Below are positions 10,789-35,275 of a DNA stretch of 64,000 nt, one piece after another (position 1 is the first letter of the stretch; the number at the start of each line of letters is the position of its first letter). A model generated the notes under the pieces. The model ran no database searches. It had not been told where the DNA came from and worked only from the letters and a program-made list of their open reading frames with translations. The position numbers were made by a program, and so were the translations under genes. Origin of the DNA: Candidatus Latescibacterota bacterium (GTDB lineage: Bacteria > Latescibacterota > UBA2968 > GCA-2709665); NCBI GenBank assembly GCA_965248435.1, contig OZ252100.1:2048001-2112000 (forward strand), read 5' to 3'.

Positions 10789-10917
10789 TAACGGTCTCGG
10801 CACCCACGAACCTGCCGAGCGGGCGCGGCGGTTGCCACAAGTTGTGATTTAAAGCAAGCGCCGTGAACGAGGTTTGGCGAAGGCGCGAATGCGCCGGAGC
10901 CGGGGGTGCGCGTGTTA
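10789..10917. repeat. attC-like site, long variant
   Basis: TAAC GGTCT CG GCACCCACG AACCT...AGGTT...CGGGGGTGC G CG T GTTA. Confidence 0.85.
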
Positions 10918-11093
10918 CACGCTGTGTTGTCCTTTGTCATCGAGAAAGGAATAAAGGAGCGACCATAACGCTCTTTGTCTTTTACGATTTTCTGTTCTTT
11001 AAAAAGGAGATAGCTATTGCAGAGAATCCCCGCCAGATAATTTATCTCACGGGGATCTCATATTACATAACATGCTTGAAAGGTTAAATCGAA

Positions 11094-11158
11094 TATTAAC
11101 GGCTCGCGTCCACCGGTAAAATGCGAGCGCAGCGAGTAGTTTAAACGCTTTGTTAGAT
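11094..11158 (-). repeat. Classical-looking integron attC (different family, possibly damaged)
   Basis: Minus strand ATCTAAC AAAGC GTTTAAAC...TCGCTGCGCTCG...GTTAATA, with the canonical 5-nt spacer and an L-box. Confidence 0.5.
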
Positions 11159-11212
11159 TTATGTGCTCGACGATACTCCGTGCTTATCATACCCTAACGA
11201 CCGCATACCTTA

Positions 11213-11671
11213 TTAAAAACGGCGCACAGCTAGAAAAACGCCAATAGCCATAAATACCAGCCCAACGAAACGTTGAACAGATATTGGGTGATGAGGAGCA
11301 CCCAATAGACTGTAGTGATCAATGATTGCCATTGAAATGAGCTGGCCTAACAATACCAAAGCGACAGCATTTCCAACACCAAACCTGGGCGCAACCCAAG
11401 TTATGCTGAGAATATAAAATATTACAAATAGCCCACCTAGATAGAAATAGATGGGGATTGAAGTTTGAGGGTTAAACTTAGGCATACCTTCGAAGATGAA
11501 CAAGAACCCAAGGGAAACTACGATGCCCACCGTAAATAGGATTGTTGTAGCTAATGCTGGGCTTTGGAGTTTTTCGCCTAACCCTCCGTTCAACGCGGCC
11601 ATTACTGGAATTCCTAGGCCTGCAATCAACATTAAAACTGCGTAAAAGATTGAATGATGCAGTCCGTTCAT
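11213..11671 (-). CDS. DMT family transporter (YdcZ-like)
   Basis: AGLGIPVMAALNG...YLGGL...GQL...IIDHY; hydrophobic, AT-rich. Confidence 0.85.
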   Translation of the reverse strand: MNGLHHSIFYAVLMLIAGLGIPVMAALNGGLGEKLQSPALATTILFTVGIVVSLGFLFIFEGMPKFNPQTSIPIYFYLGGLFVIFYILSITWVAPRFGVGNAVALVLLGQLISMAIIDHYSLLGAPHHPISVQRFVGLVFMAIGVFLAVRRF

Positions 11672-11748
11672 TGAGGTATCCTCATATGGGTAGGGTTTGT
11701 TTTTGCTCCCTTATGCTTTTCCCATCACACAAAAAATAACATTGCGTG

Positions 11749-11827
11749 TAACGTTCTTTGTGTGTGCGAACCTGCGAAGCAGGTTTTCAGTGAGGGGCGG
11801 ATGCCCCGAACGGCACACACAATGTTA
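11749..11827. repeat. attC-like site
   Basis: TAAC GTTCT TTGTGTGTGC...AACCTGC/GCAGGTT...GGGGC/GCCCC...GCACACACAA T GTTA. Confidence 0.9.
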
Positions 11828-11848
11828 CCTGCCGTGGCAGTTCTCGCG

Positions 11849-12787
11849 CTATCCTGATAGGTCTTTGGTCCAAGCCTCATACAGTTCGTAGTCGGGCCCC
11901 ATAACAGACTCATAGAATGCGTTAGCTCCTGAATTTCCACCGTGAACAGAGGCAACAGTCGCTCCCATTCGCCGCAGTCTTCTGAGGCCCTCCGTCATCA
12001 CTGCTCTGCCTAGTCCCTTCTTCTGATGAGCTGGGACGGTCGCCACAGGCTCGACATATCCGCTACGAGTCACATCATCGAACCAAATCGTACAGAACGC
12101 AGCGATTGAGCCGTCTTGTGCGGCAGCAACAAGATCTAAGTCTCGGCGGTAGAGAGGGGCAGTCTGGATACTACGATACCAGGTGGGGTCGTCTCGGTTG
12201 TCCACGGCTACCTTGATGTCACCTTTATGGAACCCAAGCCCCGACGCATAGCAGCGCTCCAGTAGCTCCAACCCTTCGCCGACAGATCGAATCGTATATC
12301 CCTCAGGGAGATGGATACAGGGCAAATCGTCTTGTAGTTGCCGACGCCATTGGTGGAATCCATTACCCCTGCTATAACCCTTCTCTCCAAGAATATCTTC
12401 GCGCATCACATCTTGATTCGTTGCCCATATTTCCAGCCGCTTTGAGCCGTCTAGATCCACACACGGGAGGCAGCTCTCAGCAACGTCGATCATCTCCTCC
12501 TCTAAATCGGGAGTCCGAAAGTCAGGATGGACACACAAATGTGCTTCTCCTGGACCTCCATCCGCTATCAGAAGGGCGATGATTCTGCTTTCAGCCTCCC
12601 ACAAGAAGACGACTTCCCCGAATGGCACGCCGGTGCAGTTTGGACAGACGTGCCACCTTGTGTAGTCGAGCCGAGCGACGTGCCAGCTACGTTCCAGACG
12701 TTTGTTCAGCAAGAACACTTCGCGAAGAAAGTCGCGCAAGCGCCAGTAGTCATCCTCTGATTCGTAGGCGCGAAATACGTGACTCAT
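11849..12787 (-). CDS. GNAT acetyltransferase (two-domain)
   Basis: VEPVATVPAHQKKGLG; start taken at MSHVF. Confidence 0.85.
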   Translation of the reverse strand: MSHVFRAYESEDDYWRLRDFLREVFLLNKRLERSWHVARLDYTRWHVCPNCTGVPFGEVVFLWEAESRIIALLIADGGPGEAHLCVHPDFRTPDLEEEMIDVAESCLPCVDLDGSKRLEIWATNQDVMREDILGEKGYSRGNGFHQWRRQLQDDLPCIHLPEGYTIRSVGEGLELLERCYASGLGFHKGDIKVAVDNRDDPTWYRSIQTAPLYRRDLDLVAAAQDGSIAAFCTIWFDDVTRSGYVEPVATVPAHQKKGLGRAVMTEGLRRLRRMGATVASVHGGNSGANAFYESVMGPDYELYEAWTKDLSG

Positions 12788-12876
12788 TGGATCGCCTCCC
12801 CAGATTTCCATCTGACGTAACGCCAACACTCATTACTCTATTTCTCACAGGCTGATCTTGACACTGCCATGGCAGG

Positions 12877-12956
12877 TAACGTTCTCGCGGGCTGCGAACC
12901 TGCGTCAGCAGGTTGGGCGAAGTGGCGAATGCCACGAGCCGCAGCCCGCCGTGTTA
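12877..12956. repeat. attC-like site
   Basis: TAAC GTTCT CG CGGGCTGCG AACCTGC/GCAGGTT GTGGC/GCCAC CGCAGCCCG C CG T GTTA. Confidence 0.92.
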
Positions 12957-13028
12957 TGTGCTTTGCCAGCCTGGGGCGGATGGCTCTGGCGGTGCCGTCC
13001 CCGAAACGCCGAGGTATTTTCAACCCAA

Positions 13029-13712
13029 TTAAGAATTAAGTTCACTCAAGGAAGGACCATCTCCTTCAGTTTCGTATAGCCAAGCTTCCAAGTTTCTCTT
13101 GATTGCAGGCCACTCGTCGTCCATCATCGCATACCAGGCAGTATCCCGGTTTTTGCCCTTGATAATCATATGCTGTCTGAAGATCCCCTCAAACTTGAAT
13201 CCCAGTCGAATTGCTGCGGACCGCGATCGCTCATTCACGGCGTCACACTTCCACTCTACTCGTCGATAGGCCAGGCGATCGAACGCCTCAGAAAGCATCA
13301 AGTAGACACATTCAGTATTGACTTTCGTTCTCTGAGCTTCCGGACCGTACCAGATATGTCCGAGTTCGAGCCTTCTCATGTCTGCGACTACGTTCAGGAA
13401 GGCAACCATGCCCACTCGTTTCTGAGATTCCTCCTGGTGAACAGTAAGAAACAGGGGGTCATCCGAGTTCTCGGTGCTTTCCAGCCAAGAGGCCATTGAA
13501 TCTTGGCTTGCAAACGGTCCGTACCCCATATAGGTCCAGAGTAATTCTCCATCCACCGTCCCGTGCGAGCACTCGTAAAGCTCTTGCGCGTCCTGCTTTG
13601 CCTCGACTGGTGCGAGAGTCACGAACTTTCCAGAATAAACTCTTCTCTCTGGAAGATCCTGTGGACTTCCCACGTTAGCAGGCTCTCCAGCGAGCAAGGA
13701 ATTCGAACTCAC
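13029..13712 (-). CDS. GNAT acetyltransferase (RimL/YdaF-like)
   Basis: ELGHIW, YRRVEWKCD, RLGFKFEGIFRQH, NRDTAWY. Confidence 0.9.
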   Translation of the reverse strand: MSSNSLLAGEPANVGSPQDLPERRVYSGKFVTLAPVEAKQDAQELYECSHGTVDGELLWTYMGYGPFASQDSMASWLESTENSDDPLFLTVHQEESQKRVGMVAFLNVVADMRRLELGHIWYGPEAQRTKVNTECVYLMLSEAFDRLAYRRVEWKCDAVNERSRSAAIRLGFKFEGIFRQHMIIKGKNRDTAWYAMMDDEWPAIKRNLEAWLYETEGDGPSLSELNS

Positions 13713-13795
13713 ACAGTATCTCCTGTAGGTAGATTGCGGGTAAACCTACGGCGCTAGGGATAGCGGCGTTCGTTTGGTTAGGCTGGCATTGCATA

Positions 13796-13875
13796 TAACG
13801 GTCCCAGGCCTTGCGAACCTGCCGCAGGCGGGTTGCAGTGAGGGCCGTCAGGCTCGAACCGCAAGGCCTGTGTTA
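13796..13875. repeat. attC-like site
   Basis: TAAC GGTCC CAGGCCTTGCG...CGCAAGGCCTG T GTTA. Confidence 0.92.
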
Positions 13876-13942
13876 AGCGCTGCCCCGGTCGTGATCTCAT
13901 AGGCAGATGCTGACAGGACAAGAACGCGTCAGTCGGTGCTGC

Positions 13943-14728
13943 CTATTCAGAGCGTATTGTGCCCCAAGCAATCTGAGTACGCACCGGGTACGAGATCTTT
14001 CCATCGGAGGCATACGGTGCCAAGATTTCCTTGAGTTCTTGATCAAACTCAGCTAACCAAGGTCCGAGTCTAGATGGTGCAAAGGTGTTGCGAGAGTGCT
14101 GGCAGAGCACAAAGTCGTCTATCGTCTGCGATACTGGATCCGACAAGATGGATGTTTCGCCAGAGATGTTGATGAATTGCCTGTATTGGTTGATGAAATC
14201 CTGATAAGGAAGATCTCCTCGGAGTTCGTATTTACCGGCTTCTTTCAGTCTTCTAACCCAGCGCTCTACCAGGTCACGCCATTTGCCTTCCCAGGGGGGA
14301 TCAAACGCCCCATCTCCATCCACCACCGCGAGAACGTGCTCTTCGGACACGGCACGGTGGAGGCGAGGAAATAGAGCAGCGTGATCCATCCAATGAATGC
14401 TGGCCGCAGCTACCACAAGATCATAGGGTATCCCCACGAGAGGGAACGATTCCGCGGTATCCTCTACCCAGGTGACATTTGATGTCGTGTCTTCTGCCAG
14501 GGATTTCGCGACGGAAAGCATCGCACTCGAAGGATCAACTGCAGTAGCTCTATTGAAAGAGTGACAGAGGCGGCGTACGATCTTCCCCGTCCCGCATCCT
14601 ATATCCAGAAGGGAATCATAGCGAGGACTGACTTCCAAGAGCTTCGCGTAGACTCCATCGCAGTACGGCGCCCGATACGCGTAGTTCCGAACAACGTCTT
14701 CATCCTCAAAGGCTCTACCTATCTTCAT
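13943..14728 (-). CDS. Class I SAM methyltransferase
   Basis: LDIGCGTG, VDPSSAML, AASIHWMD. Confidence 0.9.
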   Translation of the reverse strand: MKIGRAFEDEDVVRNYAYRAPYCDGVYAKLLEVSPRYDSLLDIGCGTGKIVRRLCHSFNRATAVDPSSAMLSVAKSLAEDTTSNVTWVEDTAESFPLVGIPYDLVVAAASIHWMDHAALFPRLHRAVSEEHVLAVVDGDGAFDPPWEGKWRDLVERWVRRLKEAGKYELRGDLPYQDFINQYRQFINISGETSILSDPVSQTIDDFVLCQHSRNTFAPSRLGPWLAEFDQELKEILAPYASDGKISYPVRTQIAWGTIRSE

Positions 14729-14783
14729 GCTGCCCCCGCTGAAATCGAGCGACGGATGTCTTTCCTTCGACCGGGGTTGCGCT

Positions 14784-14861
14784 TAACGTTCTCGGCACCC
14801 ACGAACCTGCGAAGCAGGTTGGAGCGGAGGCCGAATGGCCGGAGCCGAGGGTGCCGTGTTA
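14784..14861. repeat. attC-like site
   Basis: TAAC GTTCT CGGCACCCACG...CGAGGGTGCCG T GTTA. Confidence 0.92.
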
Positions 14862-14880
14862 ACCGCTGTGCCGGTTTATT

Positions 14881-15342
14881 TCACGACTCAAGTAGTGCAC
14901 GCATATCTGCGATGATCTTTTGGTATTCATCAGGATCTAGATGAACAATCTGTTCATTGATTTCCGTAAACAAGTACGGCGCAGCCTCATATGACTGAAC
15001 AATAATGTGGCAGTGTATGTGAGGGCAGCCGTTGCCGTATACGGCATAGTTTATCTTGGGTGATGAATAGAGCTTGTTCAGTGCCTGGGCAACTGACGCA
15101 ACATCCTGCCAGAACTCTGAGAGTTCTTGAGGAGATAGATCGAAAAGCTCACATACATGCCGCTTGAAAGCAACAATAGTCCAGCCGCGTAAGTATTGAT
15201 TGCGCGGCAGCCTGACGAAGCTTTGCTTGAGTTCGACCACGAGAAAACCATGTGGATTTTCCTCAAGGTGGATGTCGGCGCACATCGGGCAGCCGATGCC
15301 CTTTCTTAGTCGTTCCCACTCTTCCCAAGAAGGCCAAGCCAT
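14881..15342 (-). CDS. HIT family protein
   Basis: CPMC, KINY, PHIHCH. Confidence 0.88.
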   Translation of the reverse strand: MAWPSWEEWERLRKGIGCPMCADIHLEENPHGFLVVELKQSFVRLPRNQYLRGWTIVAFKRHVCELFDLSPQELSEFWQDVASVAQALNKLYSSPKINYAVYGNGCPHIHCHIIVQSYEAAPYLFTEINEQIVHLDPDEYQKIIADMRALLES

Positions 15343-15399
15343 AGAAAACGCTCCAAATCACTTATGAATATGCCCGAAGCCCCAAACCGGCATTGCGGT

Positions 15400-15531
15400 T
15401 AACGTTCTCGCGGGCTGCGAACCTGCCAAGCTGGCGCGGCGCTTGCAAACGAGGTTTCAAAGCAAGCGCCGTGACAGCGACAGGCAGGTTGCGCGAGGGG
15501 CGAATGCCACGAGCCGCAGCCCGGCGTGTTA
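15400..15531. repeat. attC-like site, long variant
   Basis: Family ends plus an inserted hairpin GGCGCTTGC-loop-GCAAGCGCC. Confidence 0.92.
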
Positions 15532-16425
15532 GCCGCCGGCCGGCTCTTCAGAGGTTTCCCACCCGGGCAGTCGAGATTCAATGTAGTCCACCAGCAATTT
15601 GTACCTGATAGCCAGCTTGGTGTTCTTCGCTTCTCGGTACTCCTGGAGTTTCTCCTGCGCAAACTGAAGTGCCTGCTCGGGGAGCTCGGGATCTCCGCCT
15701 ACGTACGTTCGGAATCCTTCACCTAAATAGTCGAGAATTGTGTTACCATCGATGTCCCTTGCGATGAGACTGAGGCACAACCCAGACATCTCCTGGTTGA
15801 ACGAATCGAATTCGTCTTTGGGATCGAGATTCCTTTCTTGGAGAAGGTAGTTAACCATCTCTGTGCCTATTGTGATTCTCGGGTATTGGGCAACCTTGCT
15901 CTCTAGGTTGTATGCCCTAGCCACCGCAGGTCCGTATAGTTCACCTTCCCGCATTTCCATGCCGATTCCTACATCTAAGCCTCCTCGGAGAGGATGTTTG
16001 CTGGCTAGAGAGATCAGCATAACCGAGGCGCACGCGGAGAGAAGTCCCCATACTGATCGAAACGGCATCCTCCCGGCGCTTTCCGAGAGCGCGACAAAGA
16101 CAACAATCCCATCAGAATAGCGTTGAAACTTTATCTTGCTTCCAGTAAGAGCCTTGTACAAATCTGGATTCTGGGTTTTAAGTCCCTCAGGAATCCTTCT
16201 CTTTTCCATAATTCCGCCAAAGAACTCTTCAAACATCTTGTGAAGGCCATCCACAACGCCAAATGTACGCTTCAGCTGGTCGATAAACGCGCGCATCTCC
16301 TCTTCATTGTCTACGTCGGGCAGAGAATCGAGTCGAGATAGCTCCTCCTGTTGTCCCAGAAGATCGATGAACCCGACCAAATGAAAACAAACTTCGTAGC
16401 GATCATCATTCTCTTCAGTAGACAT
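15529..16425 (-). CDS. Hypothetical protein with nucleotidyl-cyclase-like motifs
   Basis: FIDLLG, YSDGIV, LRGGLDVG, GPAVARAYNLES...YPRI. The TAA stop lies within the site core. Start trimmed to MSTEE. Confidence 0.6.
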   Translation of the reverse strand: MSTEENDDRYEVCFHLVGFIDLLGQQEELSRLDSLPDVDNEEEMRAFIDQLKRTFGVVDGLHKMFEEFFGGIMEKRRIPEGLKTQNPDLYKALTGSKIKFQRYSDGIVVFVALSESAGRMPFRSVWGLLSACASVMLISLASKHPLRGGLDVGIGMEMREGELYGPAVARAYNLESKVAQYPRITIGTEMVNYLLQERNLDPKDEFDSFNQEMSGLCLSLIARDIDGNTILDYLGEGFRTYVGGDPELPEQALQFAQEKLQEYREAKNTKLAIRYKLLVDYIESRLPGWETSEEPAGG

Positions 16426-16454
16426 GATCAGCCTCGGATTTTCCGGCTGGCGGC

Positions 16455-16532
16455 TAACGTTCTCGGCACCCACGAACCCGCGTAGCGAGTTGGGCGGAGG
16501 CCGGATGGCCGGAGCCGTGGGTGCTCGTGTTA
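16455..16532. repeat. attC-like site
   Basis: TAAC GTTCT CG GCACCCACG...CGTGGGTGC T CG T GTTA. Confidence 0.92.
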
Positions 16533-16630
16533 TAGGATGCCCGACCCAATTGATTGAATCGCACCAGAGTTTATCCGGAAGATCATCTGGAATCGGACTC
16601 AGCGTGAGAACGAAGGTCACGAATCTGCCA

Positions 16631-17233
16631 TCAATGGGACCCGGGAAAGGGACAGTGATAGGGAATCGTGAGGAAGTCAGCGACGGCCTGGTCGCCCAGA
16701 TTGACAGGATCGCCCTTCTCCAAACGTTGTGTGATATTCGATCCGCAAATATTGAACGCGTCGACAAGCTTTGGGATGTCGCCGTCGAATAGGACGTTAT
16801 CGGGATTCCAGTCCATTCCGGCGAAGTAGGGAAGATTGTCAGCCTGCCGAAGCCCTTTTCTAAGAATGCAACCGAGCTGGTCTATTTCGGGGTCTGCTGT
16901 CTTGTCTTCCTCCAGCGTAGCCTTCAGCACGTCAAGGAACCCCTGCTGCTTTTCCCTCTCACGTTTGAAATACCTGGGCGTCTCGACAACAAAGCCATTT
17001 CGCTGCAACGAGATTATGGACCGGATTTGTGGCAGATTCGTATGTGGGTTTTCTCTGCATAGTCTTGCAAATATGAGGTAGGCGGGATCGAACGGGGTGA
17101 GCTTGACGACATGGTCTGCATGAGGCGTCAGGAAGACGAGAGACCAGTCACCAGAGGCGAGCTGCGTGTATCCAGCATCAAGGAAAGCATATGCCGCCTG
17201 CCGGTAAGTTAGTGACTCAAGATCCAATATCAT
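16631..17233 (-). CDS. Hypothetical kinase-like protein
   Basis: VVKL, DWNPDNVLF, LVDAF resemble kinase/phosphotransferase motifs. Confidence 0.5.
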   Translation of the reverse strand: MILDLESLTYRQAAYAFLDAGYTQLASGDWSLVFLTPHADHVVKLTPFDPAYLIFARLCRENPHTNLPQIRSIISLQRNGFVVETPRYFKREREKQQGFLDVLKATLEEDKTADPEIDQLGCILRKGLRQADNLPYFAGMDWNPDNVLFDGDIPKLVDAFNICGSNITQRLEKGDPVNLGDQAVADFLTIPYHCPFPGSH

Positions 17234-17282
17234 AACGTCCGGAATCTCGTGATAAATAGGATTTCAGGGAGGGCATTTCCTA

Positions 17283-17417
17283 TAACGTTCTCGCGGGCTG
17301 CGAACCTGCCAAGCTGGCGTGGCGCTTGCAATCAACGTCTATCAAAGCAAGCGCCGTGACAGCGACAGGCAGGTTGGGCGAAGTGGCGAATGCCACGAGC
17401 CGCAGCCCGTCGTGTTA
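17283..17417. repeat. attC-like site, long variant
   Basis: Family ends plus the inserted hairpin. Confidence 0.92.
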
Positions 17418-17444
17418 TGCGCTTGTGCTGCGAATGCGTGTCCG

Positions 17445-18242
17445 TTAGAAGGGAATGCGCAGCCCATCATATGCCATTTTGAGCCCTGGATTCTCCCTGA
17501 GAACGTCGGTGCGCCTGTCCTCGTCGAATCCTGCAATTAGTGCCCCGTCCCTCCAACTGTGAAAAGACATGTGTGTCAGGATACACTCTCTGCTTCCTAT
17601 CTCCTTCCAGACTTCGATCGCTCCCGCGATATCAAGGTTGTGCCAACCTTCTGCATCAAGCTCATCCATTGTAGCCTCCAGAATGAGCAAGTCCACACCG
17701 CTAAGTAACTCTAATGTGTCATCCGGCGGCCGGACGCCATCGCCCAGATAGGCGATTCGTCGCTTACCCTCAATGATGAAACCAACACTATCTTTGAAAT
17801 GAGACGTCTTGACCGGAATATAGCGCAGTAAGCCAATATTCAAGGTCATCCCTGCTTCAATCACACGTAAATCGCAGGTTTTCTTCATATAACTCAGTTC
17901 CTGCTCCAAATGGACCAATCCCGACGCAGGAGTGTATAATGGGAGCTTTTCCCATTTGTGAATAAATGCGGCTTCGTGAAACTCCCCAAGCCCCGCGATG
18001 TGGTCAAAATGCCAGTGAGTGATGAGGATCGCATCCACCTTCTGGATTGACTCCCTTTCAAGCTGTTCGGCTATGTCGGGTCCCGCATCGATAAGTGTCG
18101 TCTGGCTATCTATGATTGCAAGAGCAGATCGCGTTCGTCTAGCAATGGCACCTTGGCGAGTTGCCTCGCAAATGGCGCAGGAGCAATGAAAGGAAGGGAG
18201 CCGCAGGGCAGCAGCAGTTCCAAGGAAGGCTATCTCAGGCAA
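17445..18242 (-). CDS. MBL-fold metallohydrolase (PhnP-like)
   Basis: FLGT, CSCAIC, IDAGPD, THWHFDH. Confidence 0.9.
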   Translation of the reverse strand: MPEIAFLGTAAALRLPSFHCSCAICEATRQGAIARRTRSALAIIDSQTTLIDAGPDIAEQLERESIQKVDAILITHWHFDHIAGLGEFHEAAFIHKWEKLPLYTPASGLVHLEQELSYMKKTCDLRVIEAGMTLNIGLLRYIPVKTSHFKDSVGFIIEGKRRIAYLGDGVRPPDDTLELLSGVDLLILEATMDELDAEGWHNLDIAGAIEVWKEIGSRECILTHMSFHSWRDGALIAGFDEDRRTDVLRENPGLKMAYDGLRIPF

Positions 18243-18319
18243 GTCAAATTCCTTTAGTCATTCCGCAGTTGAGGCTCGCAGCACTGCGCATTGTATCTTG
18301 AAAATATGATCTATTTGTA

Positions 18320-18490
18320 GATTATCTTGGTTCGAAGAAGACCTCTGGGGAGGCCGGATTGCGCATGAAGGCATTGACCTTGGACGTTAGATAGGCCCCC
18401 CGCCTTCTTGGCCCATGCCGAGGAGTATCCGAGACCCGAGAGTCTGTATCACAAGGCTGGTAGGCCAGGTGCAAGGTCGGGGGACCAGAG
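18320..18490 (+). ncRNA. Predicted IS110 bridge RNA (boundaries approximate)
   Basis: Two stem-enclosed loops. ATTGCGCAT (18358-18366) and ACGTTAG (18384-18390) match the target; GGAGTATC (18422-18429) and ACAAG (18451-18455) match the donor. Confidence 0.8.
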
Positions 18491-18513
18491 GTACAAATAA
18501 GGAGGGAGAGATC

Positions 18514-19506
18514 ATGAAGCAAGAGAATCTGTTGGGGGTAGATGTCTCAGCCCGGGAGCTGGTGGTCGCGATCCGTCGCTCAGGGAAAGCGTATCCACTG
18601 GCAAGATTTCCCAACACAGGCGAAGGGCACCGTCGATTGATCAAGTGGGCGACAAAGTGGGGAAAGCCGGCTCGAGTGGGAGTCGAGGCCACAGGCATCT
18701 ATAGTTTTGAGGTGGCGTTGGCGTTGTATCGGCATCCGAAGACTCAGGTGATGGTAATCAACCCCAGAGCGCTGAGGAATTTCTCTCAGGCTTTGATGAA
18801 ACGGGGGAAAACCGACCCGATCGATGCGGAAGTGGCATTGGAGTATGTGCAGCGGATGCCCTTCCAGACGTGGCAGGCACCCCGTGATGAAGTACTTGAC
18901 CTGCAGGCGATTACACGCCGGATCGCGCAGATCAAAGTCGAGATCAACCGGGAAGGAAACCGGCTTCACGCTTCCACGCAACGCCCATCGGTCGCGTCTG
19001 CGGTCGCCTTGGACATCGAAGAGCATGTTGAACATCTCAAAGCGCGTGTGCAGCAGCTGAAAGCGCGGGCTCTGGAGCTCATTGAGGGGGAAGCCACTCT
19101 GCGCGAGAAGTTCGCGCGATTGACTTCCGTTCACGGGATCGCAGCAACCAGCGCGATGGGCATTCTGGCAGAGATTTCGATGTTGCCTGCCGACATGAAG
19201 CCTGCCCAATGGGTGGCCTACGCAGGCCTGGATCCACGACCCCACGAATCGGGAGACACGATTCAGAAGCGCCGAGTGATCTCCAAAGCGGGGAATAAGT
19301 ACTTACGAACCGCCTTATATATGCCAGCGCTGGTGGCCATTCAACAGCAGCCCAATGTGAAGGCGTTCTACGAAAAACTCATCAGTCGAGGCAAGAAGCC
19401 CATGCAGGGGGTCATCGCGGTGATGCGAAAGCTGCTTCACTCCATCTGGGGTATTCTCCAACACAACCAGGACTTCGACGGAGAAAAGTTCTACAAAATG
19501 GCTTGA
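18514..19506 (+). CDS. IS110 family DEDD recombinase
   Basis: GVDVS, VEATG, KTDPIDA, ESG, ISKAGNKYLR, AVMRKL; RBS GGAGG before ATG 18514. Confidence 0.95.
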   Translation: MKQENLLGVDVSARELVVAIRRSGKAYPLARFPNTGEGHRRLIKWATKWGKPARVGVEATGIYSFEVALALYRHPKTQVMVINPRALRNFSQALMKRGKTDPIDAEVALEYVQRMPFQTWQAPRDEVLDLQAITRRIAQIKVEINREGNRLHASTQRPSVASAVALDIEEHVEHLKARVQQLKARALELIEGEATLREKFARLTSVHGIAATSAMGILAEISMLPADMKPAQWVAYAGLDPRPHESGDTIQKRRVISKAGNKYLRTALYMPALVAIQQQPNVKAFYEKLISRGKKPMQGVIAVMRKLLHSIWGILQHNQDFDGEKFYKMA

Positions 19507-19522
19507 CCACCAAGAGAGTATC

Positions 19523-19609
19523 TAACGTTCCCGCCACTTGCGAACCCGCCCCCAGGCGGGTTGCCGCAGGCCAAGGCGCGGATGCGCCGCAGCGCAAGTG
19601 GACGTGTTA
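19523..19609. repeat. attC-like site (IS110 target)
   Basis: TAAC GTTCC CG CCACTTGCG...CGCAAGTGG A CG T GTTA. Confidence 0.9.
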
Positions 19610-19678
19610 TGGGCTTGTGCCAGTTTGGAATTGGGCAAGAACATACAGTGGACGGCTATTACCTAGATTCCCAGGTCT

Positions 19679-20560: not shown

Positions 20561-20631
20561 TGTATGATCCTAGCCTGTCTGCCTTTGTCCCACTCTCAGT
20601 TTCGCTTTGGCTCCAAAACTGGCATGGCCCA

Positions 20632-20769
20632 TAACGTTCTCGCGGGCTGCGAACCTGCCAAGCTGGCGCGGCGCTTGCCACCCACGATTGTCTTAAGCAA
20701 GCGCCGTGACAGCGATAGGCAGGTTAGGCCGGAGGCGCAAATGCGCCGGAGCCGCAGCCCGGCGTGTTA
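20632..20769. repeat. attC-like site, long variant
   Basis: Family ends plus the inserted hairpin. Confidence 0.92.
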
Positions 20770-20808
20770 GCCGCAGTCGATTGAATTCACTACTACAACC
20801 GTAGGCCG

Positions 20809-21213: not shown

Positions 21214-21246
21214 GGCGTCCCTTCATTGACGTGCATCGATTGCGGC

Positions 21247-21325: not shown

Positions 21326-21365
21326 GCGGCAGTCGCCTAAGGGGTCTACTCTCCAAACCGTTGCT

Positions 21366-23933: not shown

Positions 23934-23939
23934 CCTCTG

Positions 23940-24791: not shown

Positions 24792-25099
24792 GGCTCTCTC
24801 CTTCTGCTGATGGTGGACGTTGTTAGCAGAAGGAGGATGCGAAGCACAGAGCCATTTGCAAAGTGGCTCCGGACTTGCACGGTATCATATCCTGGTTGTC
24901 AAAGAGCAAAGGCCTTGCAGCAGGCCACCGCGAAGCGGTTTAGTTCAACTTCTGCATTCGCGTACTTCGTGGATTCCACCAAGGTACGAGTATCTGCGCC
25001 CTACGCCTATCCCGGTTAAACGTACTTAACACGCCCTTGTTCGTGAATCCCTTTCTATAGAGACACGTGAATTTGACAACCGAGTGCCGCGTAATACGG

Positions 25100-25700: not shown

Positions 25701-25782
25701 TAACGGTCCCGCCGTGCGCGAACCGCCGCAGGCAAGTTAGGTCGGAGGCCCGAAAGGGCCGAAGCCGCAGCCCGGCGTGTTA
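25701..25782. repeat. attC-like site (arms mismatched)
   Basis: TAAC GGTCC CG CCGTGCGCG...CGCAGCCCGG CG T GTTA. Confidence 0.85.
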
Positions 25783-25848
25783 TGCGTCCGCACAGGTTCT
25801 GAGCTCGTCTCTATCCATCACGGCACACCATCCGACTATTCGACTCCC

Positions 25849-26891
25849 GAGTTCAATAAGGAAGTGCAACACTTAGGGTAGCAACTGTCCTATCCTAAGT
25901 GTATGGGAAACAATTACAAGCATCTTACGATAGACGAACGCGAGCAGATTGCGCTTTGTCGAGCCACTGGTGCAAGCCTTAGAGATATTGCCAAGGCCCT
26001 TGACCGGAGCGCCAGCACGATTTCAAGAGAGTTGAAACGTAATCCGTCCCCGATAGCTGAGAGTTACTCGGGCCTCCAGGCTCACAGAAGGGCTGAGAAA
26101 CGTAAGCGGGAGGCCGGCAAGCGGAAACGGCTGAAGAATCCGGTTATCCGGCGATATGTCGAGACCAAACTCAAGCAAGGATGGTCTCCCGAGTTGATCG
26201 CTGGGAGGCTTCCCGAGGAGCGTCCGAGCGCGGGTATCAGCCACGAAGCCATCTACCAGTATATCTACGATCCAAAGGTGCACAAGCAGCGGGATCTGGT
26301 TGCTTGCTTATCCCGAGCTCACAAAAAACGAAAGCCGCGGTGGCATACCCGAAAACACCGGGAAAGCCACATTCCAGGCCGTATTTCGATCGATCGACGT
26401 TACATCGAAAAACGGAAACAACCTGGCCACTGGGAATCCGACACCATCATCTCTCGTGAGAGCAAACAGGCCGTTGGCGCTTGTCTTGAGCGATCGTCGA
26501 GATACCTACACCTGGCTAAGCTGGCAAAGAACGGACCCTCGGAGGTCGCCGAAGCGATTAATCGACGCCTTGGGCGACATCCTCCCCACATGAGGAAGAG
26601 CATCACATATGACAACGGATCCGAAAACGGCCAACATCAACGGGTCAACGAGGTGCTTGGCACCAAATCCTATTTCTGCAAACCGTTCCACAGCTGGGAG
26701 CGAGGCGCTGTGGAAAACGCTATCGGTCTGGTCCGCAGATACCTCCCCAAGAAGACAGACTTCTCAAAGGTCAGCAAACACGAGTTAAAGAAAATTCAGA
26801 ACCGGATCAACAACCGACCAAGAAAATGTCTTAACTTCAAAACACCAGCTGAAGTCTTCAAGTCCAAGTGTTGCACTTAGTCATTGAATCC
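25849..26891 (+). mobile_element. IS30-family insertion sequence
   Basis: ~26-bp imperfect IRs GAGTTCAATAAGGAAGTGCAACACTT / AAGTGTTGCACTTAGTCATTGAATCC. Confidence 0.85.
25903..26880 (+). CDS. IS30 family transposase
   Basis: YKHLT...STISRELKRN, WSPELI, GHWESD, TYDNGSE, WERGAVEN, NNRPRKCL. Confidence 0.95.
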   Translation: MGNNYKHLTIDEREQIALCRATGASLRDIAKALDRSASTISRELKRNPSPIAESYSGLQAHRRAEKRKREAGKRKRLKNPVIRRYVETKLKQGWSPELIAGRLPEERPSAGISHEAIYQYIYDPKVHKQRDLVACLSRAHKKRKPRWHTRKHRESHIPGRISIDRRYIEKRKQPGHWESDTIISRESKQAVGACLERSSRYLHLAKLAKNGPSEVAEAINRRLGRHPPHMRKSITYDNGSENGQHQRVNEVLGTKSYFCKPFHSWERGAVENAIGLVRRYLPKKTDFSKVSKHELKKIQNRINNRPRKCLNFKTPAEVFKSKCCT

Positions 26892-27430
26892 AGCACTTCG
26901 ATTTTCTGTCCTTCAGGTCCTATTTCAGCAAAATGATCCCAGTAGAATTGCGCCCTGGGTTTCTCCCCTCTGCCAAGGATCTCTCGCCAGTCCGCAAGTC
27001 TCACGTCTGGTTCAAATGGCCAGACCTTGTCCTGGAGCCTTGCGATTCCCTTCTTCCCATCATAGGCGTCAGCAATCCTCTGCCGGTCCCACCACATAGT
27101 GGGCTCGGGTAGCTCGGAGACCTCGAAGTAGGCCGCATCCGCGATCTCATCTGGACAGATCGCGATCCGATGGTTCAGAGGTTCTCCTGCGAAAACCACG
27201 ACATTGTCGCCACCGTTGTGCCACCGTGGGCTAGAATAGATCCCAACCATTCTGGTTAATTCCGTCTCGATGCCCGTTTCTTCGGTAGTCTCACGGATGG
27301 CAGCTTGGGCGACGGTCTCTCCAGGGTCTACCATTCCTCCAGGTAATCCCCAGACTTCAAGATCTTGCCTCTGAACCAAGAGAACTTTGTCAGAGTCAAA
27401 GACAGCGACACTTGCAGAGAGGTTTGGCAA
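26858..27430 (-). CDS. NUDIX hydrolase with its last codons replaced by IS30 sequence
   Basis: Nudix box GGMVDPGETVAQAAIRETTEETG. Confidence 0.88.
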   Translation of the reverse strand: MPNLSASVAVFDSDKVLLVQRQDLEVWGLPGGMVDPGETVAQAAIRETTEETGIETELTRMVGIYSSPRWHNGGDNVVVFAGEPLNHRIAICPDEIADAAYFEVSELPEPTMWWDRQRIADAYDGKKGIARLQDKVWPFEPDVRLADWREILGRGEKPRAQFYWDHFAEIGPEGQKIEVLDSMTKCNTWT

Positions 27431-27514
27431 GTTTCCTCCAGAGAGAGCATAACAGATTTAGGGTTCTGTGCTTCCGATTGTACGGGTATTGCATCTTGGA
27501 ACCTATGTGGCGCA

Positions 27515-27595
27515 TAACGGTCTCGACACCCACGAACACGCTGCAGGCAGGTTGAGCGCCAGGCCGAATGGCCGGAGCCGTGCGTGCACGTGTTA
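27515..27595. repeat. attC-like site
   Basis: TAAC GGTCT CG ACACCCACG...CGTGCGTGC A CG T GTTA. Confidence 0.88.
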
Positions 27596-29954: not shown

Positions 29955-30033
29955 TAACATTCTCGCCGGCTGCGAACTGCCGCAGGCAATTGGGCGAAGG
30001 CGCGTATGCGCCGCAGCGCAAGTGGACGTGTTA
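29955..30033. repeat. attC-like site (arms mismatched)
   Basis: TAAC ATTCT CG CCGGCTGCG...CGCAAGTGG A CG T GTTA. Confidence 0.85.
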
Positions 30034-30114
30034 CACGCTGGCGGCGCGGGCTTCGTCATGGCGAAGCCCCCCACAGGCCGGGAGTACAGTGCACGCCACA
30101 AACAGGGGTGGCAG

Positions 30115-30794
30115 TTACACACTCGGGTTCACGACCTGGCAGGAGCACCCAGGAGCAACGTACTCGCTGGCCCCCTCGCCAAATCGGACGACACCATCAT
30201 AGCCAAGAGCGATGATCTCCGTACCGGCAACCACGATCGCGGACCGTTCTGAGATGGCAAGTACAGGGTGCGAATGGTCCCCGACCAGCCGTGATATCAT
30301 TGGGTCGTCTGAAGTCTTGTAGTGACACCATATCGTGAAGCCGTGGACGACCCCGAGACCAGTCGTGTCCGTCAGCCCTACGTCATTGGGATCCGCATGT
30401 TCGCAACTTCTGATGTCGCACCCCATTATGATCGCGCCGGCACTTCCGCCGAAGACTGGTCCGCCCGCTTCGATGAAGCGTCGCAGAGCGGGCTCCATCT
30501 TCTTCGAGCGCAAGTGGCAAGCATTGAGAAGGTGTTGCCCCCTCCGATATACACTCCGCCAAACTCCCCAAGACGATCCGGATTGTAGTCTCCAGGGCCC
30601 GCCCACATCTGGATGGAGGTGACCCCGAAGGGGGACATTGTCGCACAGATCCATCTGTAGGAATCCTCTGCCGGAAAGGCATCACCGGGCATATATAGCA
30701 GAGGTTTCCTGCCTGCGATCCAGGCCGCAAAGAGTTCGTGGTGAAGACGGGTTTCGTTCTCGTCTCCGCCTCCAGATAGCACGAGTCTCATCAT
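30115..30794 (-). pseudogene. Peptidase S51 (dipeptidase E-like), frameshifted near 30515
   Basis: LSGGG...YIGGGNTF in one frame, GGSAGAI...WCHY in the next. Confidence 0.75.
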
Positions 30795-30898
30795 TGGGTC
30801 GATCCCTTGTCTGTCGTCCAATGGAGGGGTTTGGCTTCCTGCTCTTGTGCACGTCTTTCCGGGGTGGGGTGGCTGGGCAGTCCTGTGCCGCTTGCGTG

Positions 30899-30985
30899 TA
30901 ACGTTCTCGGCACCCACGAACTTGCCAAGCGGTGTTGGGCGAATGCCCGTTAGGGCTGAGCCACGCAGCGTGAATTGCCGTGACG
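30899..30985. repeat. attC-like site, right end decayed
   Basis: TAACGTTCTCGGCACCCACGAAC...GTTGGGCGAA. Confidence 0.7.
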
Positions 30986-33457: not shown

Positions 33458-33545
33458 TGAATACCTTCACGCCTAACTTGTGATGGGGTTCTTGTGCGCG
33501 ACTTTTCGGGGTAGAGCTGTTGGGACTCCCTGCGCCGCTCGCGTG

Positions 33546-33624
33546 TAACGTTCTCGCGGGCAGCGAAGCTGCGAAGTAGGTTGGGCGAAAGAGCGAAAGC
33601 CCCGAGCCGCAGCCGGGCGTGTTA
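33546..33624. repeat. attC-like site
   Basis: TAAC GTTCT CG CGGGCAGCG...CGCAGCCGG G CG T GTTA. Confidence 0.85.
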
Positions 33625-33669
33625 AATGCTGTCGTGGCCTGAGGTGGTTTGGGCAAGACGAAAAGGGTG

Positions 33670-34473
33670 TCAGTTTGGCTTTATGTACTGTGTCCTATAG
33701 CTGATCTTTCCATTCTTGAATTCATATATTCTGAAAGTTGCTTGTCGTCCCCAATAGCCTGCAACGGGGGAGCAGACGTACAGCGGGACGTTTCCCAACC
33801 AATGATGTTCATCTCTGTGAAAGTGCCCAGCGATTACCGCTTTCACATTGTGGGTGTTGATGAACTTTTCCCATTTATCTCGGAATTTCCTCTTCCAGCC
33901 CTCATGGATTTTGTTCCTGTAGAAATCTTCAACTGATGGGGTGTGATGAAAGAGCAAAACCGGACGTCCATCTGCTCTTTGGAGGTATCCTTCAAGTTCC
34001 TTTAGGGGTTCAAATCCTTCAAGAATGAACGATTGCGCTAAAGGCTCAGTGCAGATAAAGATAAAGACTACGCCCTTATATTCTGCCTTTGAAATCAATG
34101 TTCCAAAGTTGCTCTCGTATGTGCGTCTAGTCTCCTCAAGCAGTTTTGGAAGGAAATCATGATTCCCGGGAACATAGTGGATTGGAACCTGGAGGTCGCC
34201 TAAAACAGACCTGGCATTGGTGAGAGTAGCTTCATCAAGAATTTTATTCATTGTTATGTCGCCAGTGTGAACAACGCATTCGATTTTCATAGGCAAGTTA
34301 TTTATACGATCCACAACTCTAGCGACACGCTTAGCATGATCGCCGTCTCCGAAGTGGGTATCAGAAATCTGAACGAAGTAGAAATGAACATCATCGGACT
34401 CGTCTGCACAGATCGGATAGGCTCTGAAGAAAGCGAGAGCAACAAGCAAACAAATGTGATATCTCTTTAGCAT
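33670..34473 (-). CDS. Secreted metallophosphoesterase
   Basis: SDTH, TGD, GNHD, HH, GHFH; signal peptide. Confidence 0.9.
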   Translation of the reverse strand: MLKRYHICLLVALAFFRAYPICADESDDVHFYFVQISDTHFGDGDHAKRVARVVDRINNLPMKIECVVHTGDITMNKILDEATLTNARSVLGDLQVPIHYVPGNHDFLPKLLEETRRTYESNFGTLISKAEYKGVVFIFICTEPLAQSFILEGFEPLKELEGYLQRADGRPVLLFHHTPSVEDFYRNKIHEGWKRKFRDKWEKFINTHNVKAVIAGHFHRDEHHWLGNVPLYVCSPVAGYWGRQATFRIYEFKNGKISYRTQYIKPN

Positions 34474-34533
34474 TGTTATTTCCTTCTGGGGCTTCCCAGG
34501 GCATGAGGTTTTGGGATAGGCCACGACTGCGTG

Positions 34534-34608
34534 TAACGTTCCAGACACTTGCGAACCCCGAAGGGGTTTGCCGAGGGCCGAAAGGCCTTAGGCGCAAGTG
34601 CCATGTTA
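34534..34608. repeat. attC-like site
   Basis: TAACGTTCC...CACTTGCG AACCCC/GGGGTT GGCC/GGCC CGCAAGTG...T GTTA. Confidence 0.85.
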
Positions 34609-34626
34609 TCGGAAGTGTGCGACCAA

Positions 34627-35199
34627 TCAAAGCTCCGGGTGGGTAAGTCTGTATCGTGTGACCAGCCTTTCACCACTGTGAACTGAATTTTCTAGAATTC
34701 CGCGTTCGTGGACTTGAAAGTCTAATTTCTCCAAAACTTTGATTGATGCAACGTTGTCTTCAATAGGACTCGCCTGGATTGTCTCAATTTCAAGGTCGTT
34801 GAAAGCAAACTCGACTACTCTATTTGCAGCTTCCGTGGCGTATCCTTTGTTCCACTCTTCCGGAATGATCGAGAACCCGAGGATCGCCAGATCCCGAAAC
34901 TTACTAAGCGAGACAAAGCCAACATCAACATGATTATCCTTTCTCTCGATTATCATGGAGAGAGCTTCTCCAACTTCATTTCCCGACATCACCCTTGAGA
35001 CAAATTCCTCTGCATGCTGGTGCTTAAAGGGAAATGTGACCTTTGATAAGTGCCTAGAAACCTCCCAATTCGAATACAGCTTGAACACAAAGTCAACGTC
35101 GCCAAGATCAAGCCGCCTGAAATAAAGACGTCTTGTTCCGGTTGACGGTGTCCGCCAATGCTTACTAGACGCCACTAATTGACTCCTGGACTTACGCAC
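34627..35199 (-). CDS. GNAT acetyltransferase (RimJ type)
   Basis: WNKGYATEA, NVASIKVLEK. Confidence 0.88.
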   Translation of the reverse strand: MRKSRSQLVASSKHWRTPSTGTRRLYFRRLDLGDVDFVFKLYSNWEVSRHLSKVTFPFKHQHAEEFVSRVMSGNEVGEALSMIIERKDNHVDVGFVSLSKFRDLAILGFSIIPEEWNKGYATEAANRVVEFAFNDLEIETIQASPIEDNVASIKVLEKLDFQVHERGILENSVHSGERLVTRYRLTHPEL

Positions 35200-35207
35200 A
35201 TTCCCGA

Positions 35208-35275
35208 TAACGGTTGCGCCACGCGCGAGCCCCGCTAAGCGGCGAAGCCGTGAAAGGGCCTGCGTGGATAATTGA
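35208..35275. repeat. Decayed attC-like site
   Basis: TAACGGTTGCGCCACGCGCG; the cassette IR to its left matches 34605-34621. Confidence 0.55.

Follow-up and report, generated by a model that had tools for sequence, protein, structure and literature searches.

In mobile integrons a gene cassette opens with bases that complement the beginning of the attC site belonging to it, because the R box is divided into an R' and an R'' half by the crossover, which falls between G and TT (AA and C on the bottom strand). According to the passages on this point in Bouvier et al. 2009 (PMC2727003), the self-pairing reaches 9-11 consecutive nt in most cassettes, and our own baseline measurement on six class 1 cassettes, of which five are distinct, gave 6-12 nt. 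A preliminary description of the locus reported here, which placed known complementarity mainly over ~7 bp, therefore set this figure too low. Excerpts of Nivina et al. [quoted passage not shown] As for arrays without an integrase (CALIN), 83% of them hold fewer than six sites and 15 of 279 have an intI remnant nearby in the excerpted text of Cury et al. 2016 (PMC4889954).

We analyzed a window of 64,000 nt from a Candidatus Latescibacterota-like chromosome. Junction lists, ORFs, cargo and a profile search identify within it an integron-type cassette array without integrase (CALIN) on the - strand at 7449-40801, with ~25 attC or attC-remnant junctions. Its ORFs are unidirectional on the - strand and each is followed by a conserved palindromic site between AAC and GTT, every junction reading ...TAAC, conserved core of 70-138 nt, GTTA... 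Of the 53 attCs analyzed, 52 have a core that begins with G and ends with T. Because the cassette ORFs sit on the - strand, the + strand is the bottom strand of these attCs. Pfam matches revealed a cargo usual for integrons (GNAT, methyltransferase, HIT, glyoxalase, MBL-fold and YdcZ proteins). As in sedentary chromosomal integrons, for example those with the Vibrio cholerae VCRs, many cassettes share near-identical lineage-specific attC cores and their functions are mostly unknown or accessory. Unlike these, the array has no adjoining integrase, attI or Pc, and its right, promoter-proximal end lies at folD (40839-41720). It resembles CALIN in the insertion sequences within and beside it and in the presence of an IntI C-terminal remnant (72 aa) ~2.6 kb from another array of the same genome. 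It differs in being larger than most arrays in the PMC4889954 excerpt and in belonging to a genome with ~70 sites of one attC family in ~9 chromosomal clusters. No Rfam match was obtained for this attC, and the family was found on Candidatus Latescibacterota genomes as well as on Gemmatimonadota and Poribacteria contigs. Searching 60 relatives for orthologous cassettes gave none.

The preliminary description had regarded the units of this array as integron cassettes moved as modules, each with its own terminal inverted repeat. The array anatomy, the cargo and a duplicated cassette described below bear out the first part, and we consider it highly probable that the units are integron gene cassettes, each with the basal (R''/R') stem of its own attC divided into two halves that had been read as 'terminal inverted repeats'. 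In such a system the integron integrase would act on the bottom strand in its folded form, cutting 5'-AAC-3' between A and C. On linearisation of the circle into the array, the GTTA... half (R'') would remain by the attC core, on the downstream side of the ORF, and the ...TAAC half (R') would go to the far upstream end of the cassette, beside the core of its neighbour. This splitting of the stem between the cassette ends would be the reason why the arms complement each other inside a unit but not from one unit to the next. This stem-splitting principle is already known, and the present family is a stretched version of it, not a new kind of element: its stem is predicted to span ~16-20 bp, with a median of 18 for the predicted outer base pairs, compared with the 7-11 bp described for known cassettes. 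Further differences from the mobile-integron R'/R'' pairing are a fixed bottom-strand G.T at position 11, often a T.T at position 10, and the conservation of G8 and T12. We found no mention of a long R stem with a fixed wobble in passages of attC-structure papers.

To score the arms we counted matches over the 16 positions 5-20, ungapped and anchored on GTT/AAC. All 14 units named in the preliminary description exist at the positions it gave, all on the - strand, and 11 of them score 11-14 of 16. The cassette at 10914-11752, which carries a YdcZ-like ORF (11213-11671, Pfam), has 11/16 matches with a run of 15 and the complementary ends GTTACACGCTGTGTT... and ...AACATTGCGTGTAAC. Three arm pairs that had been quoted in full proved exact. 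The first belongs to the GNAT cassette 11824-12880 (ORF 11849-12829), whose arms at 11824-11841 and 12863-12880 match at 17/18 positions, the G.T at position 11 being the single non-Watson-Crick pair. The second (18/20) bounds the methyltransferase cassette 13872-14787 (ORF 13943-14728; arms 13872-13891 and 14768-14787), with T.T at position 10 and G.T at position 11, and the third (also 18/20) the HIT cassette 14858-15403 (ORF 14881-15342; arms 14858-14877 and 15384-15403). Another GNAT cassette, 12953-13799 (ORF 13029-13712), pairs its arms 12953-12971 and 13781-13799 with 13/16 matches, also seen in the fold. Pairing over 16 nt was found at 15528-16458, where position 11 is G.T and the TAA within GTTA serves as the ORF stop codon, at 20766-21250 (glyoxalase-fold ORF 20809-21213), again with G.T at position 11, at 21322-22469 and at 30030-30902. 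The last of these has a paralogue of 91.7% identity at C1:1441729, which carries a long-type attC. In 33621-34537 the arms match at 13/16 positions, with mismatches at 5, 7 and 10, and 34605-35211, flanked on its right by a degenerate attC, shows 17 nt of arm pairing. On the right of 21322-22469 the attC core is replaced by an IS91-family element (22470-24962, - strand; transposase 22743-23933 and Xer-like tyrosine recombinase 23940-24884), which sits directly past the TAAC of an attC and interrupts the array without being part of the feature.

The other three named units, starting at 16529, 19606 and 25779, score just 7-8 of 16 because the two sides of their internal loop are unequal. The arms of 16529-17286 (8/16 ungapped) pair given a loop of 0 versus 2 nt, and those of 19606-20635 around one of 3 versus 2 nt with an outer stem longer than 20 bp; both units still form long outer stems in the fold. 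The weakest named pair is that of 25779-27518, a cassette with an IS30-family insertion, whose arms show 8 paired nt, a 7 versus 6 nt loop and 6 paired nt, and in which circularising gains 6.8 kcal/mol. Four further units of the window, at 17414, 27592, 29115 and 39021, showed no arm match. For the MBL-fold cassette 17414-19526 (- strand; ORF 17445-18242) the reason is an IS110-family insertion that splits the left arm: once this element is ignored, the outer part of the left arm, ending at ~18290, complements the right arm at 17414.

We then extended the comparison to 50 cassettes genome-wide. True pairs averaged 10.36 of 16 matches, whereas 2450 mismatched pairs gave a mean of 5.53 (sd 1.93), and none of 20000 shuffles reached the observed mean, either genome-wide or in the window alone (n=18). 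The comparison of true and shuffled end pairs suggested in the preliminary description thus favors true partners, and this is also the case for positions 13-20 alone (4.9 versus 2.4 of 8). In the 35 well-paired cassettes, Watson-Crick pairs occupy positions 5-9 and 12-16 in 31-35 cases, with 3-4 pair types at most positions; pairing fades gradually from position 16 and is at background by positions 20-22. The long ungapped stem is absent in 15 of the 50 cassettes; IS110 insertions account for three of these and unequal loops for some.

Counted outward from the crossover, the arms start with GTTA/TAAC over positions 1-4, followed by free Watson-Crick pairs at 5-7, G.C at 8, a free pair at 9, a pair or T.T at 10, G.T at 11, T.A at 12 and free Watson-Crick pairs up to 16-20. 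Mismatches had been noted about 10-11 nt from the GTT, and this is where they fall: position 11 is G on the right arm opposite T on the left in 41/50 cassettes (bottom-strand G.T, equivalent to A.C on the top strand), and position 10 is T.T in 12/50. Among 27 distinct cassettes of other genomes, 20 likewise have the G.T at position 11, and the same stem architecture is present in several genera, other Latescibacterota genomes included. The arms had been called unique to each unit. Their pairing is indeed partner-specific, but conservation between cassettes is seen at positions 1-4 (GTTA), 8 (G), 11 and 12. At positions 13-26, by comparison, almost no sequence information is left (0.0-0.4 bit each).

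The structural statements that follow are single-strand energy predictions obtained with DNA parameters. The predicted folds comprise an R box, an unpaired spacer, an L stem and a VTS. A short-type example at 12878-12955, read on the bottom strand (+), folds at -27.3 kcal/mol (z -5.07) with L-box covariation, and consists of TAAC (R'), a G.T wobble, a 4-nt bulge TTCT, an L stem of 11 bp whose 3' side has one extrahelical base, a two-hairpin VTS, a T and GTT (R''). The long type, exemplified by 15401-15530 (+ strand, core of 124 nt), has short-type ends and L box with a ~55-nt VTS insert. L boxes fall into six covarying sequence types, with at least 10 of 11 positions paired in 34/53 attCs, and the single extrahelical base of the L stem lies on the 3' arm of the + strand. 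All three features named by Nivina et al. 2016 are therefore found in these predicted folds, and the bottom strand is likewise predicted to be the stabler one (-43.1 versus -38.0 kcal/mol for the top strand, ~5 kcal/mol, in 37/40 junctions). The spacer however is a one-sided 4-nt bulge TTCT instead of the 5-6 nt on each arm given in the PMC5027507 excerpts, and two conserved G.T wobbles, one adjacent to the cleavage site and one at position 11, add an R-stem strand asymmetry to the three features named there. G.T pairs number 2.67 per hairpin on the bottom strand versus 0.68 on the top strand. When circular and array junctions were modelled (n=40), as the preliminary description had proposed, the circular form was stabler in 35/40 (-43.1 versus -34.5 kcal/mol, a difference of 8.6 kcal/mol). 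For the predicted outer (basal) stem the circle gives a median of 18 bp, the array 6 bp and pairing with a random partner 7 bp, in agreement with the stem of ~20 bp with a positioned internal loop that had been expected for the circle; 4/40 folded junctions have two outer pairs or fewer.

A duplicated cassette helps to locate the crossover. C1:1442727 (753 nt) has a second copy elsewhere at 97.5% identity, and the homology includes the core and ends 3 nt outside the predicted left point between AA and C and 2 nt past the right one. This supports the junction between TAAC and G as the probable crossover. Placing the crossover at the core, as had been done earlier, is thus upheld, except that only one end of the unit is a crossover; the other (GTT..., the R'' box) stays on its own attC core. 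Since this R'' end remains attached to the core, the mobile unit is core, right arm, ORF and left arm.

It is possible, though we think it the less likely view, that the long stem, specific to each cassette, is itself functionless and that selection acts on the inner 12 positions and the wobble only. This view is compatible with the identification of the units as cassettes and disputes function alone. Quasi-palindrome template switching is an established mutational process, and replication switching template in the hairpin could 'correct' one flank by copying it from the other; alternatively the stem could be a relic of the cassette's origin, when a gene was joined to a complete long hairpin. 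An outer sequence that is essentially random yet complementary within each cassette, a stem end that is ragged over positions 16-22 and the decay of arrays without integrase would all agree with this, as would the paralogues C1:1441729 and 30030, in which, by eye, single outer-stem changes are left unpaired and none is compensatory. Against it, the architecture is kept in several genera and seen on contigs of two other phyla, the position-11 wobble persists though template-switch correction would erase it, and no such extension is seen in class 1 cassettes, which go through a hairpin and a circle as well.

The preliminary description had suggested that the outer stem may be a second recombinase-binding box. 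On this reading positions ~13-20 of each attC would be occupied by an accessory protein or by an integrase monomer additional to the usual two. One tyrosine-recombinase arm site takes 11-13 bp in Xer and Cre. The stem exceeds the length that one such site needs, the loop at 10-11 splits it into two helical segments and its positions 13-20 pair specifically with the true partner. Nevertheless we judge this proposal improbable. The 0.0-0.4 bit per position beyond position 12 means that a sequence box is absent, the length of the outer segment is variable, its pairing fading gradually, and in the array, where excision would start, it is unpaired. PMC11641012 describes, in the part concerned with integrase-binding sites, just the R and L boxes. 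The conserved G8, G.T at 11 and T12 all lie within ~12 bp of the cleavage site and, by analogy with Xer and Cre, would fit within the reach of a single arm site. The remaining alternative, that every unit is a transposable element in its own right (MITE-like or a cargo transposon), an ORF bounded by TIRs and inserted between the copies of a repeated target, is very hard to credit: it has a superficial appeal in ORFs lying between 16-22 bp inverted repeats that open with a common GTT...AAC, but the repeats differ between units save at 7 conserved positions, no single transposase could recognise them, the units encode no transposase, target-site duplications are absent, the supposed 'target' shows every predicted attC feature, and the boundary of C1:1442727, which takes the core along and ends between TAAC and G, not at the inverted repeats, contradicts it.

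No IntI above the TIGR02249 cut-off was found in the genome by profile search, and ongoing recombination therefore cannot be assumed there; 11/53 attCs have non-complementary L boxes, which points to an array in decay. Out of 61 genomes scored for IntI (the present one, without it, and the 60 relatives) six carry the gene, and no attC array of the present family was found beside IntI genes in the three relatives checked. We only infer a function for the long stem. Positions 8, 11 and 12 would contact the integrase monomer bound at the R box, and the two G.T wobbles, the one at position 11 and the other just inside the cleavage site, would tilt both folding and recognition towards the bottom strand. 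The full stem would be possible just in the excised circle, which would fold much better than a resident attC, and this would favor the insertion of free cassettes over the excision of resident ones.

On the + strand of the window, from about 7449 to 40801, a left arm ending in ...TAAC is repeatedly followed by a conserved element of 70-138 nt, which starts with G(T/G)TC(T/C)CG and finishes with ...CGT, and then by a right arm starting with GTTA. Successive conserved elements are separated by one ORF, at times two, on the - strand; all the cassette ORFs are in this orientation and, as the ORF and junction lists concordantly indicate, the attC site sits 3' of the cassette ORF. Out of ten cassette ORFs analyzed with Pfam, eight matched families of the type carried as integron cargo (a YdcZ-type exporter, two GNAT acetyltransferases, a methyltransferase, a HIT protein, an MBL-fold hydrolase, a GldB/DUF2268-like protein and a glyoxalase-fold protein) and two matched no family. 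The right end of the array abuts folD. Outside the array we observed two unusual multidomain ORFs, one of 1349 aa (54686-58735, - strand) combining a BlaR1-type M56 peptidase, propeller repeats and a thioredoxin/AhpC-like end, and one of 481 aa (62314-63759, - strand) in which sigma-70 regions 2 and 4 are fused to ankyrin repeats.

About 70 attC sites of the family seen in the window are present in the 5.67 Mb Latescibacterota genome, in about nine clusters. No match to the integron integrase model TIGR02249 over its cut-off was obtained anywhere in this genome, and the combination of intI, attI and Pc at the first cassette that defines a complete integron was not found for the window array. 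According to Cury et al. (2016, PMC4889954) at least two attC sites without an integron integrase nearby make up a CALIN, and by this definition the window array is a CALIN. An Rfam scan of the window returned no match at all, to an attC family or otherwise, which carries no information here, as Rfam is not known to include an attC family. A 72-aa remnant of an IntI C-terminus, 50% identical to the IntI of the relative G004, was detected outside the window (C1:4954386-4954601, - strand), about 2.6 kb beyond another attC cluster (4947928-4951756).

The preliminary description proposed that many of these cassettes carry their own terminal inverted repeats of 16-22 bp. To quantify this we anchored right arms on GTT and left arms on AAC and paired each with the next arm across the ORF, which gave 50 cassettes genome-wide. 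Over positions 5-20, counted outward from the crossover, the two arms of one cassette matched at 10.36 of 16 positions (n=50) against 5.53 of 16 (sd 1.93, n=2450) for arms taken from different cassettes. The comparison of true with shuffled end pairs on which the original claim depended thus came out clearly in favour of the true pairs: in 20000 shuffles the observed mean was never attained, whether all 50 cassettes of the genome or only the 18 of the window were used. The excess persisted when the conserved positions were excluded (8.6/13 versus 4.1/13) and when only positions 13-20 were counted (4.9/8 versus 2.4/8). All 14 units originally named as having complementary ends were recovered, and the three arm pairs quoted as examples are exact. 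Eleven of the 14 match at 11-14 of 16 positions without gaps, and the arms of the units at 16529, 19606 and 25779 pair once an internal loop with unequal sides is allowed. Four window units gave no arm match; one of them, at 17414, is accounted for by an IS110-family element within its left arm. Two further copies of this element elsewhere split arms in the same way, and all the arms restored by removing the insertions show the usual pairing pattern.

The paired arms share a regular layout of 9-10 paired nt, a fixed loop at positions 10-11 and then 5-10 further bp. Among the 35 well-paired cassettes, Watson-Crick pairs were present in 31-35 at each of positions 5-9 and 12-16, and background was reached between positions 17 and 22. 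The mismatch noticed earlier about 10-11 nt from the GTT is reproducible, since at position 11 a G in the right arm faces a T in the left arm in 41/50 cassettes and at position 10 a T.T pair occurs in 12 (A.T in 14, C.G in 13). The arms had also been described as unique to each unit. This holds for positions 13-26, which carry 0.0-0.4 bit each, and does not hold for GTTA (positions 1-4), G8, position 11 and T12, which are conserved.

We used 71 left and 67 right site ends, each anchored on AAC or GTT, and discarded HMM matches without these triplets; TAAC/GTTA was present at 64-66 of the ends. The core is predicted to fold as single-stranded DNA far more stably than shuffles (z -3.8 to -5.1). 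In order, the fold comprises AAC:GTT (the R box), a G.T pair, a bulge of 4 nt on one side, an L stem of 11 bp and a two-hairpin terminal structure. The L stem exists in six sequence versions with covarying halves and is paired at 10 or more of 11 positions in 34/53 complete sites. Its 3' half counts 12 nt and its 5' half 11 nt, leaving one unpaired base when the + strand folds. This single extrahelical base, predicted for the R''-L'' arm in the bottom strand, is not a conserved G or T. In a standard attC site about 5-6 nt are unpaired in each arm of the spacer, whereas the spacer of the window family is one-sided, with a 4-nt bulge (TTCT, TTCC or GTCT) on the 5' arm and 0-1 nt on the 3' arm. 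In its predicted fold the conserved element, an imperfect palindrome, has the anatomy of an attC site, with R box, spacer, L box and variable terminal structure. Three observations identify the + strand as the recombinogenic bottom strand: the cassette ORFs run on the - strand, the attC site follows the 3' end of the ORF, and the extra base falls on the + strand's 3' arm.

Two forms of the core were distinguished, a short one of 67-87 nt (for example 12878-12955) and a long one of 114-138 nt (15401-15530, 17284-17416 and 20633-20768), whose terminal structure contains about 55 additional nt; the paralogous cassettes at window 30030 and C1:1441729, which are 91.7% identical, differ in core form. 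In 11 of the 53 complete sites the two L-stem halves are of different covarying types, pair at no more than 8 of 11 positions and leave the L box unable to pair (29956-30030 and 25702-25779 in the window, C1:3871848, C1:3868423, C1:1439408 and others). These chimeric sites suggest that, in an array lacking an integrase, attC cores have recombined by homology and caused deletions.

The arrangement has the geometry of an integron crossover: an integron integrase would cut the bottom strand between A and C of the AAC at the left edge of the core, so that the mobile unit would comprise core, right arm, ORF and left arm. Seven duplicate-cassette alignments were inspected for the limits of this unit; in six the flanking cores are too alike or of different length type, and one is informative. 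A copy of the 753-nt cassette at C1:1442727, 97.5% identical and set among other neighbours, lies at 4654531-4653773; the homology overshoots the predicted crossover by 3 nt on the left and by 2 nt on the right, the surplus being a shared TAAC and G. This duplicate bears out the earlier proposal that crossover takes place at the core, and the proposal that each unit moved as a module is also supported. In the excised circle the left arm would join the core and oppose the right arm across the hairpin; what had been called terminal inverted repeats make up, half each, one R''/R' stem in the attC that belongs to the cassette itself. A transposon or MITE with terminal repeats does not account for them, as the repeats vary by unit, the units contain no transposase and the duplicated unit ends at the attC crossover and not at the repeats. 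An origin as terminator stems into which a core was inserted is disfavoured by the constraint on 12 arm positions and by the lack of an A/T run beside the arms on inspection by eye. Nor does the conserved A-T-G at positions 11-13 of the cassette 5' arm look like a start codon: in the cassettes checked by coordinates the ORF begins well inside the arm (for example ORF 11849-12829 with its arm at 12863-12880).

We then built the circular junction of each cassette by script and folded it with DNA parameters. The predicted outer stem has a median length of 18 bp when the junction is circular; the median is 6 bp if it is folded as it stands in the array and 7 bp if the partner arm is chosen at random. 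This modelling agrees with the expectation of a stem extending about 20 bp outward in the circle with a positioned internal loop, here at positions 10-11. The mean predicted energy is -43.1 kcal/mol in the circle versus -34.5 kcal/mol in the array, the circle being more stable in 35/40 cases. The bottom strand is also predicted to be more stable than the top strand (-43.1 versus -38.0 kcal/mol; 37/40 cases) and contains 2.67 G.T pairs per hairpin against 0.68 for the top strand, on which the bottom-strand G.T pairs become A.C, explaining part of the difference in stability. In 52/53 sites the core opens with G and closes with T, which places a second wobble, besides that at position 11, immediately inside the cleavage site.

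Pairing between the arms of a cassette is itself known, and Bouvier et al. (2009, PMC2727003) describe self-pairing past the 7-nt boxes to 9-11 consecutive nt in most cassettes. As a baseline we located the attC hairpins of two class 1 arrays from plasmid records and of one cyanobacterial plasmid integron and determined their arm pairing in the same way. It extended over 6-12 consecutive nt and no further in six class 1 cassettes, five of them distinct, and in one cyanobacterial cassette. The feature found in the window is therefore the known core/inverse-core relationship at about twice its described length, plus a conserved strand-specific wobble. Our literature search, which was not exhaustive and covered part of the text of some sources, found no published description of an R stem longer than 11 nt or of an R-stem wobble, and among the matches listed none combined 'Latescibacter' with integron or attC.

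The left-end motif was detected in 24 of 61 genomes (the genome under study and 60 relatives). In 27 distinct cassettes from other Latescibacterota genomes the true arms match at 8.1/16 positions versus 5.2 for mismatched pairs, and 20 of the 27 have the G/T arrangement at position 11. Single sites of the family were also observed on Gemmatimonadota and Poribacteria MAG contigs (loci L050, L073, L079 and L080), which agree with the window in the ends of the core, the types of L box and positions 8, 10 and 11 of the arms; the attC family therefore crosses phylum boundaries. A same-family relative, G004, encodes a full-length IntI (locus L011, G004:C1:2493564-2494508) that shares 52.8% identity with class 1 IntI1, over 92% of its length, and 57% with a cyanobacterial plasmid IntI. 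No attC array of the window family was found within 20 kb of this gene. Beside the IntI of G004 and of a second relative, G060, there was no HMM match to the family, and a motif regular expression gave a few isolated candidates and no array; hairpin scans beside the IntI of G004, G054 (a third relative) and G060 gave 0, 1 and 0 weak candidates, respectively.

Several insertion sequences are associated with the arrays. Six copies were identified of an IS91-family element of about 2.49 kb (window 22470-24962; C1:4841930, 5173892, 3852355, 1447154 and 4653791), which encodes a 396-aa transposase and a 314-aa Xer-like tyrosine recombinase. All six start directly behind the TAAC of an attC-type left arm, taking the place of the attC core, and a weakly conserved motif, GTTCGTGAAT...TCTATAGA, is found 85-100 nt past their high-identity right end; the element looks like one with a site preference for the attC crossover point. 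Its 314-aa recombinase was considered as a substitute integron integrase and rejected, because it is part of this element and the middle segment specific to IntI is missing from it; in NCBIfam it matches an archaeal XerA model best (214 bits), and all the named families scored under their cut-offs. An IS110-family element of the RNA-guided type lies within the R' box, 3-4 nt 5' of the AAC, in three different cassettes (window about 18287-19523, with an ORF at 18415-19506 on the + strand; C1:1444284-1445524; C1:3860687-3861922), and its right junction, ...GAGTATCT followed by AAC, is identical in all three. The element resembles the attC-targeting IS1111 group. Finally, an IS30-family element of about 1.06 kb (window about 25845-26900, ORF 25903-26880 on the + strand) is inserted in the cassette at 25779-27518 and occurs at 33 other places in the genome with 98-99% identity. 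The presence of several insertion sequences, the missing integrase and the mismatched L boxes count against the window array currently working.

Recognition of attC sites depends on shape and not on sequence and, to our knowledge, its rules derive from few sites, those of class 1 cassettes and the Vibrio VCRs. In the mechanism that we consider probable, the full stem would be confined to the excised circle, and the site of a free cassette should fold much better than that of a resident one, favouring capture over excision. The G.T wobbles would bias folding, and perhaps recognition too, to the bottom strand. We think it rather unlikely, yet worth stating, that the long cassette-specific stem and its fixed bottom-strand G.T wobble, one helical turn from the cleavage site, constitute a fourth structural determinant of attC recognition, to be counted with extrahelical bases, spacer and terminal structure. 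The integrase would then distinguish free from resident cassettes, and the system would be biased to capture and retention, with the choice of the bottom strand reinforced. On this reading the unique outer part may also record the birth or maturation of a cassette through template-switching hairpin extension while circular.

The suggestion that the outer stem is a second recombinase-binding box found no support, because its outer segment has no sequence conservation, ends raggedly and is unpaired in the array. One arm site of a tyrosine recombinase such as Xer or Cre reaches about 12 bp; G8, the G.T pair at position 11 and T12 are no farther than this from the cleavage site, which makes contacts with the R-box monomer more likely than a separate box. 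Another explanation to be taken seriously is that no selection acts on the outer stem, which could have arisen by template switching within the hairpin or as a relic of cassette formation. Among the 60 relatives no orthologous cassette spanning both coding region and arms was found, only partial coding or IS matches of 66-91%, and in a paralogue within the genome (79%) the attC is degraded.

Whatever its origin, the arm complementarity has practical use. It can by itself call true cassette boundaries as well as IS-interrupted or chimeric sites, and attC detection models that end at the 7-nt boxes lose this usable signal. This widespread environmental attC family has three unusual traits: its R stem is roughly double the length known so far, arm positions 8, 11 and 12 are conserved, and it has a strand-specific wobble. 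If the outer stem is merely a by-product, it is still informative on how cassettes are generated. If these traits are functional, the list of attC structural determinants grows and there would be a simple physical explanation for the rare excision of cassettes from large sedentary arrays, where resident sites are without most of the stem, and for the efficient insertion of free ones.
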